A stretch of 64,000 nucleotides of DNA from Alloascoidea hylecoeti (taxonomy: Eukaryota). The DNA lies in the NCBI GenBank assembly GCA_001600815.1, contig BCKZ01000007.1, forward strand, positions 372,001 through 436,000. Reading direction: 5' to 3'. Of this stretch, positions 42,697 through 52,980 are shown piece after piece. Both the position numbers and the translations under genes were made by a program. Under the pieces are notes generated by a model, which worked only from the letters and a program-made list of their open reading frames with translations, was not told the origin of the DNA and did not search any database. Within the stretch, counting starts at the first letter, position 1. The number at the start of each line of letters is the position of its first letter.

Positions 42697-42754
42697 ATTC
42701 ATCCAATCATTTATTTGCCTTTCCTCCCGATTATTCATCTTCAACAGTTTTATA

Positions 42755-43636
42755 ATGCTTTCCATCATAAGATCTCCTCTCAGAAACTCCCTCAGAAATA
42801 TCCCAAGGCTTCCAAAAGTCTCAATTGGTGCCAGATCTTTTGCTCTTAAAGCTCAAGATCAACCAAGATTGAGAATTGGCTCAACTGCTCCAAATTTCAA
42901 GGCAACTACAACTACCGGTGACATTGATTTCCATGATTTTATTGGCAGTTCATGGACAATCTTATTTTCTCATCCTGCTGATTTCACTCCTGTTTGTACT
43001 ACTGAATTGGGGGCTTTTGCTGCATTGAAACCTGAATTTGATAAAAGAAATACAAAATTAATTGGTTTATCCGCTCAACCTGTTGGTCAGCATAAAGAAT
43101 GGGTTAAAGATATTGAAGAAACCTCTACTGGTGGTGCCAAATTTAGTTTTCCCATCATTGCCGATGAGAATAAAGATGTCGCCTTTCTCTATGACATGGT
43201 TGATGAAGAAGGTTTCAAGAACTTGAAGACGGCTTTCACTATCAGATCGGTTTATATCATTGATCCGAAGAAAAAAGTGAGATTAATTATGACTTACCCC
43301 GCATCTACTGGTAGAAATACTGCAGAAGTGTTGAGAGTTTTGGATGCCCTCCAATTAAACGATCAATCTTCCTTGGTTACTCCAGTTAACTGGGTTGATG
43401 GAAGAGATGTCATTATCCCTCCATCTGTTTCAAATGCCGATGCTAAAGCTAAATATGGTGAATTTGATGAAGTCAAGCCATACTTAAGATTTACAAAGCA
43501 ACCAACTATTAAGAAATCTTCTATGTTTTCAATTGGCTTAAATAATGGTCAAACTTCTTTTGCCCAAATGATTATTGGTGGTTTAATATTAGCTGTTGCT
43601 GCTTCATCTTTAACCAATGAAAATAAACAAGAATAG
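42755..43636 (+). CDS. PRX1: Mitochondrial 1-Cys peroxiredoxin with a C-terminal extension
   Basis: FSHPADFTPVCTTE, YPASTGRN and KPYLRFT motifs. The Arg-rich presequence starts at ATG 42755. Confidence 0.95.
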   Translation: MLSIIRSPLRNSLRNIPRLPKVSIGARSFALKAQDQPRLRIGSTAPNFKATTTTGDIDFHDFIGSSWTILFSHPADFTPVCTTELGAFAALKPEFDKRNTKLIGLSAQPVGQHKEWVKDIEETSTGGAKFSFPIIADENKDVAFLYDMVDEEGFKNLKTAFTIRSVYIIDPKKKVRLIMTYPASTGRNTAEVLRVLDALQLNDQSSLVTPVNWVDGRDVIIPPSVSNADAKAKYGEFDEVKPYLRFTKQPTIKKSSMFSIGLNNGQTSFAQMIIGGLILAVAASSLTNENKQE

Positions 43637-43949
43637 ATTTAAAACTCTTAATAATATACAATTGTATCTTGAAAGATGATAAATATATATATATATATAT
43701 ATACCTATAGTTAGTTTGTATTAATGGTATTATTCATTTTATTTTATATGAGATTTATGACGGGGTCTCAAGTTTACTTACACCATGTAAATTGCAGAAT
43801 GTTCCAAACTTCTTATCATTCAAAATCGATATATAAACATTGCTAAACTTTAATATCTATAAATCCTCTTTTGTTTTTCCACCTCCCAAAGGTACTCTAC
43901 AAGCGTATTAACTCAATTTTATAAGCTTAACTTTAATTACAAGAACTGC

Positions 43950-44400
43950 CAAGTGAATCTTGAGACACTTCACTGATACCGATAAGATAAATGCGCATGT
44001 ATGGTATGTGAAACGACTTTGTGCTCTACAATCGCATTATTTCTGATGAAAACGTGTACCACGCTCCTGTCTGTTCTTCAAACAATTAAAAAGGAAAACA
44101 CACTCTATTTCGAATAGCGATACCTATATATACAAATATGTCCACAAGGCACTTGCGATAGGCGCTTGCTGACCATCATTTTCCATTGGCCAATATCGCG
44201 AAGCAATCTCTAGTGCAACAGTATACAGTAGTTACAATATCGGAAAGTGCCTCACATTATCGAAAACTTTGGAAAAAATTTCAGATGCAAGATAATGCTC
44301 ATATTCGTGAATCCTGGTGCTATCATATTGTGATTTGAAGAGGATGGAATTGAAATAGTGGAGTAGCCTGAATAGTGCTACATTTATACTCTAATATTGT
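43950..44400 (+). mobile_element. Decayed Tc1/mariner DDE transposase relic
   Basis: RIISDE at 44033, MQDNAHI at 44285 and *FEEDGIEIVE*P occur in canonical order. DNA matches the 29 kb copy. Confidence 0.75.
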
Positions 44401-45495
44401 ATCTCAAACTCCGAAGGTAGTGAATGATGATGATAATATTCATATATAATATATTTTAAAAAAGTATAATTTTATAGAGGAGATCTGGATCTTTCTTCTT
44501 CTTCCTACAATCTATCTTCCTATGCGTATTGATAAATTTTGTGTAATCCGTGACAGTACTGAATCAATATCGAAAAGGTGATATCAAATATTATTTAATT
44601 TACTGTAGCTATATCATTACATTCGTTATTCAAATTAATAGAATTGTATAATCACTAATTATAATAGATTGATACTTTACAGCCAGATACCAGTTCATAG
44701 ATCAACTTACTAAGTAGTGATATTGTTGTCTGTAAAATGTTATCTTACCTTATTGAGAACTCGCATATGCCTGCATTTCACAATTTAATCCACTACCTAT
44801 CTGATTAAGCTTCAACCCAACTATTAGATCTTATTGTATTATTAATTCTTAATATTATTGCCTCAAGAAGTTAAGAGCTCTTATACTAACATATTTTTCT
44901 CAATTCAACTAACTTACGATAAAATCTTCTACTATTAACAAGTATTATCAATTGTTAAATGAACTAAGGGTATCGGTATACTATGTTAGTATACAATTAT
45001 AGTTTAGGATTAATTATAAACTATAATGGACTTCTTATATATAAATGATCTGAAGACATAGTGAGATCTCCAGTACCTATATAAAATATTCACAAACACA
45101 AAGCCATAATAACAACTCGTAATCATGTATGGAATGTTCCAATCTATCTCCATCTTAGATATAGCTGGTGGTTATTGAGACACAATTTCCTCCCGAAGCT
45201 GCAGCCAACATCTATTAGAATGCATTGAATGCATAATGAAAGACAATTGCACGGATTTATATTCTGCTGTCTTTAAATTTAAGTCTAAAGCCATGTATAC
45301 CAGTGGTGAGGTAATATTAAGACCCCCAATAATTCTGATAACTAAATCTTCTTTCCTAGATATTATTTTCTTCTTATACCTTCTTAGTCATTCTTTTTTA
45401 ATCTTTCATTCTTATATCTTCTCAGCCATTCGTTTATATCCTCTTTATACCTATATCTACTATTTCAATATCGTCAGAAGTAATATCAAATTAAA

Positions 45496-45999
45496 ATGTC
45501 TATTATAAACATATGTGGTTCTAGGCCCACTAGCAACAATACAGGGTACATTCCATTCACAAATATCAACAACCATCATCTTAAGGGTTCAAAGGATCTT
45601 TCGCAGGATGATGATTTAGAATTCTCGGATATAGAAGCTTGCACAATACTACCATTCTTAAGGATCAAAAATCATTGTCTTCAACAAAACAGTGTCCCTA
45701 AAGAAATACATTTATATTCAACTGAATCTGCCCTTTTAAAAATACAATTCAAACGACTTTACACATTGATAAATTCTCTTCCAGCTAAAGTTAAAGAAAA
45801 ACAACTTATTACGCCAAAGAAGGATTTTGTTACCGCCAAATCGGAAAAACATGATCGAAATAAACGATCGAGAAAAAAATATAGTATATTAACAACGATA
45901 TTAATTCTCATCATTCTAACTATTGGAACTTCTGCATTCTTAGGCTATTATTTGATAATTTCTAGGATTCAGTTATTCACAGTTTTAACCAATTATTAG
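45496..45999 (+). CDS. Hypothetical tail-anchored membrane protein
   Basis: 167-aa ORF with aaaATG context. A basic patch precedes a C-terminal hydrophobic helix. No family recognised. Confidence 0.5.
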   Translation: MSIINICGSRPTSNNTGYIPFTNINNHHLKGSKDLSQDDDLEFSDIEACTILPFLRIKNHCLQQNSVPKEIHLYSTESALLKIQFKRLYTLINSLPAKVKEKQLITPKKDFVTAKSEKHDRNKRSRKKYSILTTILILIILTIGTSAFLGYYLIISRIQLFTVLTNY

Positions 46000-46476
46000 A
46001 TATACAGAAATACAAATATTGGCTTATACTTAAACCCTTAAAGCTTCGTTAAATCATATCTCGAATGATTATAATCTTTTTACGGCCTGAGTCTTATATC
46101 CTATAGTACTATCTACTTACTTATAGCATTATAGCATTATTAACTTTTAATTTAAATGAACTATCTATCTTTAGAGTACATGCAAATGGCTGTTGCATTC
46201 AATTACCGTTTATAATTATATATCCCAGTTCACGACCTATATTATAACTAGATATTTATATAAATTCCATTATATTCTTATCAGCAAATATTTTCAATTC
46301 AAAGAACCAAATAAAATCCTCAAGTATGTTTACTTAAGGTAGAAGTAGCTGTAATTAAGATTGGCTATATAAACTTATAGTCAGGGGAATTATATCATCT
46401 TAGGTGGCGATTAAGCTGACGATGTATCAAGTCTGATTACCAGAAACAAAGAGAGAGACCATGACGATTGTGATTT

Positions 46477-47361
46477 TTAGAACGGTGATGGATAGAGTGC
46501 GAAATAAATTGATGAATGGAGTGATGAAAAGGGTGATGAAAAAGGTGATGAAAAAGGTGATGAAAGAGGTGATGATATTGGAGGTGGCTCTGTAATTGTA
46601 AAAGGTTCCGGGGTAGTATATCTTTTAAGTTGAGAATCTTCTTCTGAAGATGATTTTGTACTTTCTGGGTTTTCCGCAAGTCCTCCTTCACCAATATTGA
46701 CCCATACTAAGTCGGGAGAATTTTCTTTTGTTCTTTGTACTAATATAACTTTTGATTTCTCAAGACGATCTATAGCATCTACACAGCAGTCCCATTCATC
46801 AGTTAATTCTTTTACAGAAACTTTTTTGAGAGTTGGTTGTGACTTTAAAGCTTTGAGTAAATCCTCATCGCTTTTAATTGGTAAATACTCTAAGGTTTCC
46901 TTTTCAGAATCATACTTAATTAGAACATTTTCTTTTAATGATGGTAATAACCCAATGACCGGAAATACACAATTGGCTTGTAGTTCATCCAGTCCGACAG
47001 GCCAATTATTCGCTTTCAAAAATGAAATAGCATAAGATATCCGTGTTGAAAGATGTTCTCCTGCCAATGAACGCTGTATCTTCTCCCTTCGGCCTGTTAC
47101 AGCAGCTGATTCTGAATACCTAAATGGTGATATTGATCTCACATAGGGACGATATCTGGATGAAGAAGGAAAAGATCGTGGCACAAGAGAATCCCGCCAT
47201 CGTCGCCCGGCGCTAATATCATCAGAACCTTGTTCCATAGAAAATTTAATACTTGTAGATGATTCAACAAAATTTGGACTCTTGGGCATCACAGAGAATT
47301 CTAATGAAGAACCGATCGCAAATATAATCTGGATAAAAAAAATTAATATGATTTTAGTCAT
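46477..47361 (-). CDS. Chimeric ORF: signal-peptide-like N-terminus, TFIIE-beta (Tfa2)-like winged-helix region, Ser/Pro-rich tail
   Basis: Residues ~101-225 (HLSTRISYAISFLK..IKYDSEKETLEY..LLKALKSQPT..VSVKELTDEW..IDRLEKSKVILVQRTKENSPDLVWVN) follow the Tfa2 pattern. Confidence 0.7.
   Translation of the reverse strand: MTKIILIFFIQIIFAIGSSLEFSVMPKSPNFVESSTSIKFSMEQGSDDISAGRRWRDSLVPRSFPSSSRYRPYVRSISPFRYSESAAVTGRREKIQRSLAGEHLSTRISYAISFLKANNWPVGLDELQANCVFPVIGLLPSLKENVLIKYDSEKETLEYLPIKSDEDLLKALKSQPTLKKVSVKELTDEWDCCVDAIDRLEKSKVILVQRTKENSPDLVWVNIGEGGLAENPESTKSSSEEDSQLKRYTTPEPFTITEPPPISSPLSSPFSSPFSSPFSSLHSSIYFALYPSPF
46521..46575. repeat. 12-bp tandem repeat (ggtgatgaaaaa)x~4.5 encoding SSPF repeats
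   Basis: Directly visible. Confidence 0.9.
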
Positions 47362-47676
47362 TTAAATACCAATTTTTGCCCTACCCGCCAATGTCCAATT
47401 AGGATAAATACAGAATTAGTTAAATACCGAATTAGATAATTAAGAGCAATTGAGAGTTTACGAATCTAAGATAATGATGGTGAAATTATACAATAATCTC
47501 ACCTATGCGTCACTATATTAAAAAAACTGAAATCACAATAAATTCACTCATATCTTCTCTAAATTTATTTCTCTGTATAGATTGTACTTGTTGATTGACA
47601 ATTTCTTAAATTGATTTGACCTTAGATATTACACTAGAACAAAACTATATATTGACACTTTTATCCTTGTTCAATC

Positions 47677-47707: not shown

Positions 47708-48354
47708 TACCGGAAATTAAAGGCAGAGTCTCTTGAATCTCTTCTAACTCTTTTAGCTGGCGCGATATTTCCATAGGATTTTATTTTGCATTTATATATC
47801 TTAACCTTAAATATAACAATCGATAGTAACTTTAACTGTATAATACTGAATATTATTTTGAGTTTAGACTATGACATATGGAATATATAAAGCATGGTGC
47901 CTATAGATAGGAAGGGAGCAAAAGGATGAATCGATTACAATGATATTAAACCATTTTATGCACTATAGCTAAATGTTCACCCATATCGATTACAAATTAT
48001 CGGCCACCCACTTCACTAATCACTTTTTCTAGACTATGGTTATTATAGGATATTTTTACTGCCCAGGATTATTGAATATATATAGGTCTTTAATTGGGTG
48101 GAGGGGACGGCCGAGAATTATTCATAAACATGGCTGAAATTTTAGTTTAAAAAGATGGCCGAAATAGGAAGTAAATGGACTAATATTATAAAAACTTAAA
48201 AATTATAATTAGGACATATAGACAATATTACACCAAAATTATCACATTTCATTATCATAAATATTATTTAATTAAGATCATTTTAAAAAAGTAAGCAAGT
48301 TCAATAATTAAATTCACTAAACAAAACATTACCAATATATTAACATGTTATTAT

Positions 48355-48876
48355 TTATTTTGATATCCCAGTTAATCCGACTGCCGATGGTCTTCTTCCC
48401 TGAGAATGGACAGAAAACACAGGCATGGAAAAAACAGGAGGACCATCTAAAGCAATAGCACCACTACTATTTGAATTTGTTGGATGATATTCTCTATCAC
48501 CAGACAATGTATGGTATGGTTGTAATTGAGGTTGTTTTGTAGAAGTAATTGATTTTCTTTTTGGTTTTTTAATTTCATCAGATTTTTTTGTAAGTGGAAT
48601 TGAGTCTTGGGGAGCTGCGTCCAATGATGGTTTATTATTAATATTGTCAGATAGTGAATTTGGGGCTGAAGAGAGAGGGGAATGCGAATCTTTAGATATT
48701 TGCTTGGCTAATGCATCTCTATCTTCATTGGCATTGATAGTATTTGATGGATCTGGAGTTACAGCCAGTTTTTTTGAATCCTTGGCAATTTCTTTTTTCT
48801 TTGAATTGTTATTTTGCTTATTATCTTTTTTAGAACCATTTAACTTTTGCTTAAGAGTAGAAGTATGGTTTCCCAT
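48355..48876 (-). CDS. Small hydrophilic protein, probably N-myristoylated
   Basis: aaaATG context, MGNHTS (MGxxxS) followed by a Lys-rich stretch, and RRPS near the C-terminus. Confidence 0.65.
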   Translation of the reverse strand: MGNHTSTLKQKLNGSKKDNKQNNNSKKKEIAKDSKKLAVTPDPSNTINANEDRDALAKQISKDSHSPLSSAPNSLSDNINNKPSLDAAPQDSIPLTKKSDEIKKPKRKSITSTKQPQLQPYHTLSGDREYHPTNSNSSGAIALDGPPVFSMPVFSVHSQGRRPSAVGLTGISK

Positions 48877-49629: not shown

Positions 49630-49830
49630 CATGTGCTTGATAAACTATGTTGAAGAGATTCCAAATGAGCTCAATTGGATTTGGATTCAGGTCCGATAAA
49701 AAGCTAAAACACCTTTATCTCCTTCTCGAAATTAACTCACCACGATTCCAGCTTTATGAATAGACATGGTACTCCGAGATCCTCTTCCAGAAGTTTTATG
49801 CAGGGACATATGGGGTTCTGTTATTAGGAT
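49630..49830 (-). mobile_element. Decayed Tc1/mariner transposase C-terminal relic
   Basis: Minus strand reads SIHKAGIVVS*F..EIKVF..SDLNPNPIELIWN, i.e. the SPDLNPIExxW motif with an NP duplication (49696-49661). Confidence 0.75.
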
Positions 49831-50938: not shown

Positions 50939-52150
50939 GTGACGTGCTATGAAGCTGTTGCAGGCTTCCATCCCACAAATATATCACAATTTATTTATAA
51001 CCGGTTCATGAATCAAAGTTACCTTTTATTTCACTATCAGCTTACTGGAGTGGATTCTCTTACAACTTGGTCTGAGGCTCAATCCCGCCCCAACAGGTTT
51101 GGAATCATCAGCACCTTTGTTCGCCATAGGGGAGGAATGTCTTCGCTTCACACCAATTCTATTTTGTCCCCATATGATGCTCACACTAATGGTGATGAAT
51201 GACTATTCATCTTGAGAACCAATACGTCGGTTATTATTGCAACCCTCTTTCAGTGGCTTCATTCTGTATCCCAACACTTGAGCCCATAAATGGAATTGGC
51301 AGTATCGACCATACACAATTTCTTGAGATCCATCATTCCATCCCAAAGTATCTTTGAGCAGTTATCCCTGGCCACTCGTGAAATGCTTATCACCACCCTT
51401 ATAGGTATCATATTGAGTCTTATTTTATTATTGGCCATTACATTCGTTTGGAAAAAAACGTGTCAATCACTCTAAACCCGCAAGGTTCACTGTTACTCTG
51501 CAACAGCACTTTCTTTGTGACAGCATACCTAGGTCAGCCAATTCGTCTTCCAATGTTCCAGCAACCTCAATATCTCTTGAGAGAAAATTGGATAAGCTAT
51601 CCATATACTGTGGTGAGACGAGAAGATGACGCTAGCACATCGGAAGCAACATGGAAAGGTTTGAAATATGTGGAAACAGGAGATATCTCATCATCTAAGA
51701 GCACAATGGACAAAATGGTCTTAAAAATTGAAGAAAGTCAATCGGAAAAACAAGATGAAAGTGCACAACTTTTATCAAAAGTTTTAAGGATCCCATCGTC
51801 AAATCTAGAGAAAATCGTGACGCTTGGTGAGACATTTAGAAATGATATCAGCTTTTTGTCTATCAGCATTGATAACTTCAAAGATAGTGTCTCTATATAC
51901 ACACTTGCCGCGAATATATTGATCGATGATTTAACAAGATGTCACACTTCAATGCTTCATTATATTGATGACTTTCTCTCACAGCTCCAGAATTGGTAAG
52001 CTCTCTAGTTGTTTGGTTTACCAAGAAATATAATGATATACGGTGATGAATTAGAGATTGGATCAGCACATTTAACAACTGGAAAAGAAGAAAAGAAAGG
52101 AGAAAGAATTGGAATTGGAGTTACAGAATGTTCTTGTCTGGATCTTTAAG
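50939..52150 (+). pseudogene. Decayed gene for an unknown membrane/coiled-coil protein
   Basis: ORFs 50939 and 51290 share a frame and are separated by two stops. A frameshift at the A7 run near 51455 leads into the 183-aa ORF. Confidence 0.5.
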
Positions 52151-52201
52151 GATGGTTGCCTTCACACATTCTGTAACTTCAATTCCAATTCTTTCTCCTT
52201 T
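52096..52201. repeat. 36-bp inverted repeat with a 34-nt spacer (hairpin)
   Basis: Arms 52096-52131 and 52166-52201 are reverse complements except for one G:T pair. Confidence 0.95.
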
Positions 52202-52619
52202 TCTTCTAACTCTAACTTATATTTACAAGAACCAAGAGCAACTAAAAATCATCTTCATTTTTCTCCCCATTAGTCAGTGTTTTATGTGCTTATATTAACT
52301 AGTTTGTGTGTGTTATTCAGCATCACTTTGGAGGTGGCCGTTGGTTGACACATATGTTGAATGGATCATATGTATGAAATGATACCAGAGATAAGACAAG
52401 TCAATTACATTAATTGTTATTTAGCTGTATATGAGATTACTCCTTCCGTTTATAGTCTCAGAACTCCTTCACAATTTTTTGATGGAGCCGATCTTCCCAA
52501 CTGCTGCATATGTGCGTAAACGCCCTGTGGTGGTGTTAAGCCAACCCCTCAACAGTTAGCTTTAGTGGCAGATTAGACATAAAAATATTCAGATGAGCAG
52601 CCATCTCATCTAAAATCGA

Positions 52620-52980
52620 ATATTCTTCCAGAAGATCAACAAACCATTTTTTTCATATTTTGTTTATTATCCTTTTCAGTGAGTCCTTCATATACAATAG
52701 AGTTATTTTCAATTCCTTTGCTTTTTCTCATTCAGATAGGGCCTTTTACTTGCTGGAACTGCTCGTTATCTACGTTCTTTCAAAAGGTTTATCAGGCAGG
52801 TCTCTGATATTATGAACTTTCCAGTTAGCCAGTTAGCTCATCAAACGTATCCACGGGTGAGGCTTTACAAAAAATAGTAAGTTCTGTAGACTCTTTACTT
52901 TAGGAAGGTGTCATACCAGAAGAGTTGTCGCACTTCTTTACAGTGAACCGCACAGATGAAATAAGCCTTCTGCCTATTTT
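52620..52980 (-). mobile_element. Possible Tc1/mariner N-terminal (HTH/linker) relic
   Basis: Fragments SSVRFTVKK, CKASPVDTFDELTG*L and PASKRPYLNEKKQRN occur in Tc1 order. Confidence 0.35.

Follow-up and report, generated by a model that had tools for sequence, protein, structure and literature searches.

The closest described relatives of the gene reported here are the TFIIE-beta subunits of the general transcription machinery (Tfa2 in S. cerevisiae, GTF2E2 in human; Pfam families PF02186, PF18121 and PF22254), which share with it a core of two tandem winged helices, WH1 and WH2. The basic tail of Tfa2 binds single-stranded DNA. Of the other parts of the protein, WH2 contacts TFIIE-alpha (PMC6504876; PMC13335146) and continues into a C-terminal extension that binds to the coiled coil of the RPB1 clamp, while the winged helices bridge the cleft (PMC7111264); Tfa2 WH2 also touches TFIIH in a yeast initiation complex (10.1101/2021.05.03.442346). 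The wing lysines are proposed DNA contacts, and charge reversal there weakens archaeal TFE-beta (PMC4495717). Stalk-eyed flies carry testis-specific duplicates of basal transcription factors with TFIIE-beta in two to four copies, whereas TFIIE is otherwise given as single copy from yeast to humans (PMC4824122). No yeast TFA2 duplicate appeared among the open-licence papers that our literature searches listed.

Here we describe a locus, lying in a 64,000-nucleotide stretch of the Alloascoidea hylecoeti genome (hereafter the window), that most likely encodes a translated paralogue of TFA2 under relaxed selection. The host, a budding yeast from an isolated lineage, reads CTG as leucine, which in the parent gene is seen at the conserved positions 135, 139 and 153. 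An open reading frame of 294 amino acids runs along the minus strand at 46477-47361 without a single internal stop, as the original prediction had noted, and has Met codons at residues 1, 25 and 42. Frame, Pfam matches and tree mark it as a diverged second copy of TFA2 (TFIIE-beta). Pfam detects TFIIE_beta (PF02186) at residues 105-162 with 34 bits (cut-off 28.1) and TFA2_Winged_2 (PF18121) at residues 163-222 with 50.9 bits (cut-off 26; 84.6 in the parent), so that both domains score above their cut-offs and together span about 47049-46696, where a tandem winged-helix region had been placed at about 47061-46687. By Pfam and predicted fold WH1 corresponds to codons 101-162 (46876-47061) and WH2 to codons 163-222 (46696-46875), the latter with near-invariant residues missing. 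The best solved relative of the copy is S. cerevisiae Tfa2 (PDB 5FYW chain X, E 3.8e-14). A structure model, which leaned on a Tfa2 alignment, gave two confident winged helices (pLDDT about 83-97 across residues 101-220) with disordered ends, and the top 10 Foldseek matches to this model were all chains of yeast preinitiation-complex structures.

Exactly two places in the genome match either TFA2 protein, the copy and a complete parent on contig C3, which is the canonical TFA2 expected elsewhere in the genome. The parent encodes a 271-residue Tfa2 with WH1, WH2 and E-tether in Pfam. Copy and parent share 57% of their amino acids, and the core is 71% identical. In a tree of the core built from 36 sequences they are sisters (UFBoot 97), and the branch of the copy measures 0.74, that of the parent 0.074. 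The sister placement and the unequal branches together indicate that the TFA2 copy is a lineage-specific duplicate with nearly all protein change on its own branch, its protein having evolved about ten times faster than that of the parent. A young pseudogene had been among the options offered originally, but the copy is not young, its dS from the parent being about 0.74. Because the parent gene is intronless, copying through RNA and copying through DNA would look alike. Beside the parent we also observed an out-of-frame ATG 35 bases before the start whose 23-codon frame overlaps that start (locus L002, 2073-2110, minus strand), and the intergenic stretch between the parent and a divergent gene seems to be very short.

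By DNA alignment the copied segment is nearly full-length TFA2, parent codons 18-242, placed on another contig. In frame, copy codons 48-89 align with parent codons 18-53 and copy codons 223-262 with parent codons 191-242. Either alignment score was reached by none of 5000 random window segments, and codon shuffles reached it in 9 of 5000 cases for codons 48-89 and in 1 of 5000 for codons 223-262. The Arg/Ser-rich “linker” (codons 48-100, 47062-47220) is by this alignment the N-terminal region of the parent (codons 18-64), and its Arg/Ser richness is largely a matter of transitions, with Pro turned into Ser. On the other side of the core, codons 223-262 (46576-46695) form a decayed E-tether region that corresponds to parent codons 191-242 at the DNA level and gives no Pfam E-tether match; a free DNA alignment scores 47.5 here with non-triplet gaps against 29 in frame, and short compensating frameshifts may have occurred within it. 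The core carries two deletions of 9 and 3 bases. Only codons 1-47 and 263-294 are new relative to the parent. They comprise a signal-peptide-like leader (codons 1-19, 47305-47361), a spacer (codons 20-47, 47221-47304) that holds Met25 (47289) and Met42 (47238), and a Ser/Pro/Phe tail (codons 263-294 and stop, 46477-46575) in place of the basic tail of the parent. No homology was detected between the spacer and the first 17 codons of the parent (2578 of 5000 random segments scored equally) and no DNA homology was found between the new tail and that of the parent. The tail is built on a 12-bp repeat, as had been seen originally, with 5.5 copies and 83% matches at 46510-46575; an origin as the inverted parent tail was rejected, 544 of 1000 shuffles scoring as high. 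The original prediction had described a duplicated TFA2 fragment in a chimeric gene, which would make linker and tail foreign parts. The duplication stands but the copy is no fragment, since parent codons 18-242 are represented, and the chimera gives way to parent DNA at codons 48-89 and 223-262 and to a leader for which no donor was found in the genome, 47200-48350 (1151 bases) matching only itself.

Compared with Tfa2/TFIIE-beta the copy lacks the E-tether, the N-terminal helix and the basic tail, has altered invariant residues in WH2 and has gained a new 47-residue leader and a Ser/Pro tail, beside a complete parent. The E-tether (PF22254) gives no Pfam match in the copy, against 45.5 bits at 194-227 in the parent, and with our own E-tether profile the scores are 0 and 77.7. 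Our profile of the basic C-terminal tail scored 0 against 59.4 bits in the parent, bearing out the missing basic C-terminus, and that of the fungal Tfa2 N-terminal helix 0.4 against 33.6 bits. Basic residues in the C-terminal region drop from 20 in the parent to 3, and Cys residues number 3 against 1. In WH2 the changes are, in parent numbering, G147K, K154T, G156E, the absence of one wing Lys, and R185D; G147 and G156 do not vary across the family, and both are absent from the copy. At core positions conserved in at least 90%, 16 of 20 residues are retained, and those gone are G147, G156, one wing Lys and R185. It follows from these losses of domains and residues, read against the known roles of the parts, that the copy would fail as a working TFIIE-beta yet probably retains the module that meets Tfa1. 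When residues 98-226 and Tfa1 exon 1 were modelled together as a complex, with no controls folded, the scores were 0.17 and 0.29 against a mark of 0.34, which speaks neither way.

To what extent the remaining frame is constrained can be read from its divergence. Synonymous differences from the parent are spread evenly along the copy (pS 0.47 in the N-terminal part, 0.47 in the core and 0.52 in the E-tether part), so that the three regions are of one age, and gene conversion of the core is rejected on the same grounds. The corresponding pN values are 0.52, 0.22 and 0.38, and the difference between core and E-tether region has p=0.006. Conserved residues, defined as those that the parent has in common with 70% or more of the family alignment, are retained at 38 of 47 positions in the core versus 4 of 16 in the E-tether region (p=1e-4), and changes within the core fall on 7 of 45 conserved versus 15 of 38 variable positions (p=0.024). 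Among the conserved core residues 19 of 24 polar and 20 of 22 hydrophobic ones are kept. This pattern of changed sites favours selection. The pairwise dN/dS of the core is 0.37 (0.20-0.63); as the branch of the copy accounts for about 91% of the protein change, we infer for that branch, with no outgroup DNA at hand, a ratio of roughly 0.45-0.65 with an upper bound above 1. Codon usage set neither the copy nor even the parent apart. In neutral simulations that started from the parent, with mutation parameters of our own choice, 225 codons escaped stops in 3 to 8 of 10,000 runs when divergence was 0.23 changes per site, in 2-3% at 0.10 and in 12-15% at 0.05, and the argument from absent stops is inflated by the ORF having been picked for its intactness. 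The core profile score of the copy, 106.8, lies below all 110 family cores (minimum 155), and stop-free neutral simulations reached it in 25 of 300 cases with 39 changes and in 8 of 300 with 42 changes. We read the winged helices as having been under relaxed but real constraint, until recently or now.

The tail, as a tandem repeat, is the kind of feature that could suggest an assembly artefact or a mis-assembled sole TFA2, but the probability of this is negligible given that a complete parent is present in the genome, that the core of the copy is merely 71% identical to it and that codons 34-294 recur exactly in a contig of an independent study. This single contig, from run X4 (a wood-decay metagenome of a separate study), crosses 42700-47262 and shows 0 substitutions and 0 gaps against the window over 4563 bases, including codons 34-294 with the tail; X4 is identical across all ORF bases that it covers. 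For codons 34-294 an assembly error is refuted, and the complete parent disposes of the caveat of the original prediction that this might be the only TFA2. Run X2, which is possibly the source of the window DNA, covers the entire ORF, and X5 contributes a small share in short pieces only. Codons 1-33 and the bases just upstream (47263-47375) are supported by runs that are possibly the source DNA; X4 has no contig there, a gap that carries no weight. Metatranscriptome run X8 yielded no piece on the ORF, which says nothing for or against expression.

The surroundings had been described as transposon-littered. Short dispersed repeats, 66-80% identical to other places, do lie nearby at 43963-44577, 49653-49771, 51429-51559 and 52571-52734, but all are separated from the ORF by about 2 kb or more, the gene itself is free of transposons and none of the 24 frames scanned in Pfam, of 42 listed, matches a transposon family. 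The repeat at 52571-52734 has about 20 genome matches at 71-80% identity, and an inverted repeat at 52096-52201 has 36-base arms that are 97% complementary and 34 bases apart. Convergent with the TFA2 copy is an orphan ORF of 167 amino acids (45496-45999, plus strand) with a hydrophobic C-terminal stretch and no Pfam match above cut-off. It has an intact 171-residue paralogue on contig C10 (L005:1515-2030) with about 70% DNA identity, the differences numbering 49, 37 and 59 at the three codon positions over 153 codons. About 1 kb upstream of the copy and on the same strand lies a low-complexity ORF of 173 amino acids (48355-48876, minus strand), again with no Pfam match, which starts with Met-Gly and may be myristoylated. 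A 205-codon frame on the plus strand (51382-51999) has no Pfam match and overlaps a dispersed repeat piece.

An orthologue of the copy was sought in other organisms. Two protein searches returned just the parent and one distant Tfa2, a further one yielded 45 proteins of which the best were 41-49% identical and none was an orthologue, and two metagenome scans gave 269 and 338 pattern matches with none confirmed as such. The parent has itself no relatives above about 52-58% identity, and none above 52% over its full length, among 120 listed of 140 matches. Proteins without tether and tail that have at least 40 residues after the winged helices number 3 of 159, namely the copy, P0020 and P0028, the last two presumably reflecting intron read-through. 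In the ESM Atlas we found TFIIE-beta clusters only, with scores below 0.9. For P0001, two of the three nearest clusters there list both winged-helix families and no E-tether family; these have 64 and 183 members, mostly from land plants where known, and at scores of 0.88 they are a lead only. A genome search for co-duplicated partners found one TFA1-type locus, one TFIIF-beta and one TBP; the second PF02002 match is a longer protein read as Rpc82, and the two TFIIB-family loci are read as TFIIB and Brf1. TFA1 itself (L023, 452-1833, minus strand) apparently has two short introns with degenerate branch sites, as read by eye. The yeast resembles the stalk-eyed flies in having an extra lineage-specific copy of a normally single-copy TFIIE-beta gene, whereas the flies duplicate most of the basal machinery and express it in testis; in the yeast TFA1, TFIIF-beta and TBP each occur once and the copy has been reduced to its winged helices.

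The N-terminus of the copy does look like a signal peptide, as originally proposed. By our own heuristic, which is not SignalP, the best 11-residue mean hydropathy of the leader is 3.25; it has one Lys, an uncharged hydrophobic core and small residues at -3/-1 before residue 18 or 20, and its n, h and c regions are as good as those of a secreted-looking control in the window (h 3.25 versus 2.65). Our rule was passed by 12 of 311 background frames in its loose form and by 1 of 311 in its strict form (ATG-started frames outside masked genes), and the single strict case looks like a real secreted protein. Shuffled leader DNA was as hydrophobic in 1.5% of cases and 1.3% of random intergenic positions are preceded, 47 or more codons away, by an in-frame ATG with no intervening stop, rates to be read with the finding having been selected for its leader. 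The leader DNA is T-rich, and Met1 follows directly after a stop and has T at -3. A TATA-like octamer (47361-47368, minus strand) with one mismatch to the consensus overlaps Met1, one of 27 such octamers in the window on both strands, and faintly suggests that the leader DNA could belong to a core promoter; the nearest consensus TATA lies about 430 bases upstream of Met1, with short ORFs between. In yeast, core promoters are rich in T ahead of the start site (PMC3675475), and intergenic DNA has a raised potential to encode hydrophobic stretches (PMC10063215). The leader is likewise donorless, T-rich and hydrophobic, similar to the de novo hydrophobic sequence from T-rich intergenic DNA treated in the latter, and differs from de novo ORFs in that it extends an old duplicated gene in frame instead of forming an entire ORF by itself. 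Other origins of the leader found no footing. A derivation from the parent 5' UTR is suggestive in that Met25 is collinear with the parent start, but it is not significant (93 of 1000 shuffles). A short upstream ORF at 47774, tried as the lost N-helix or a first exon, was rejected, since it was equalled by 48 of 2130 tiles and was not singled out by the profile. The leader resembles the end of a TFA1 intron, but as an intron 3' end it is unsupported, no canonical donor being present in 48354-47100.

The reading we tentatively prefer is that the copy makes an intracellular tandem-winged-helix protein from Met25 or Met42 which acts as a weak decoy for Tfa1, where we infer expression, start, binding and effect. 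A TFA2 copy landed on another contig and evolved fast at the protein level; its frame stayed open and its tandem winged-helix fold persisted, but N-terminal helix, E-tether and basic tail disappeared or gave way to other sequence. Of this account, the comparison of the two genes shows the duplication, the loss of these domains and the pattern of constraint. Translation would start mostly at Met25 or Met42 and give a soluble intracellular protein; an intracellular start is favoured because Met1 has T at -3 and because no canonical splice donor lies upstream. WH2 of the product may bind Tfa1 weakly, or else other partners of the winged-helix bridge. Without the C-terminal extension and with a less basic wing it would neither be anchored to the clamp nor hold DNA, and no productive initiation complex would form. 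When expressed, the protein would be a weak and probably conditional decoy or damper of TFIIE. The leader would be T-rich upstream DNA that by chance reads as a signal peptide, although it resembles one more closely than chance would readily produce. Archaeal TFS4, reportedly a transcription-factor paralogue turned RNA polymerase inhibitor, offers an analogy of a basal-factor duplicate that retains its binding module and interferes, although it belongs to a different protein family and inhibition is demonstrated there but inferred for the TFA2 copy. Of the three fates offered by the original prediction, namely a secreted or membrane neo-gene, a dominant-negative TFIIE modulator and a pseudogene, the decoy fits best, none of them being demonstrated.

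The intracellular decoy has to be weighed against a copy that is simply dead. The gene may have been a relaxed functional duplicate that recently fell silent and is now neutral, with leader and tail incidental, which we consider somewhat unlikely. Its ten-fold faster protein evolution, the loss of invariant residues, a profile score far below the family and a branch dN/dS that, as inferred, is inseparable from 1 would all be expected of such a copy. The lack of an orthologue in the protein searches and metagenome scans points the same way but is weak evidence, because the parent itself lacks close relatives. Zero stops and zero frameshifts speak against it, simulated decay permitting a short dead period only, as does the concentration of change outside the winged helices at equal synonymous divergence. 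Another quite different fate, in our view improbable, is an alternative TFIIE-beta that pairs with Tfa1 for initiation at some promoters or stages. Both winged helices scoring above the Pfam cut-offs would suit it, and extra TFIIE-beta copies have a precedent in diopsid flies, with two to four (PMC4824122), but the E-tether, N-helix and basic tail are gone and the partners were not co-duplicated.

A further reading, in our judgement unlikely, is an ER-targeted neo-protein from Met1, in which the signal peptide would be cleaved to leave a secreted or cell-surface winged-helix scaffold with an O-glycosylated Ser/Thr/Pro tail, the nuclear features having been dropped as no longer needed. The quality of the n, h and c regions is in its favour, as are their rarity among the background frames, leader shuffles and intergenic positions counted above, the drop in C-terminal basic residues and the additional Cys residues. 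The leader however has no donor gene, Met1 is in a poor setting with its T at -3, the overlapping TATA-like octamer and the short ORFs below the distant consensus TATA, and the conserved polar, surface-type residues of Tfa2 are largely retained. The copy has no N-glycosylation sequon and its tail is too weakly hydrophobic to serve as a GPI or membrane anchor (mean 0.49 over the final 15 residues), marks that are common for secreted proteins though not required of them. In addition the leader rule is a heuristic and the finding was selected for this very feature. A form from Met1 that is bound for the ER, possibly beside a leaderless TFIIE damper from Met25 or Met42, with start choice switching between secreted scaffold and decoy, is likewise a doubtful prospect. 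On balance we keep to the intracellular winged-helix protein as the preferred reading.

For the biology of TFIIE, the copy amounts to a domain-deletion experiment done by nature, in which only the tandem winged helices were kept. Should it be no more than a duplicate in slow decay, it would be ordinary. If the leader works, a nuclear basal factor would have become a secretory protein via a newly formed signal. And if binding to Tfa1 proves true, this yeast would possess an endogenous damper of a general transcription factor.
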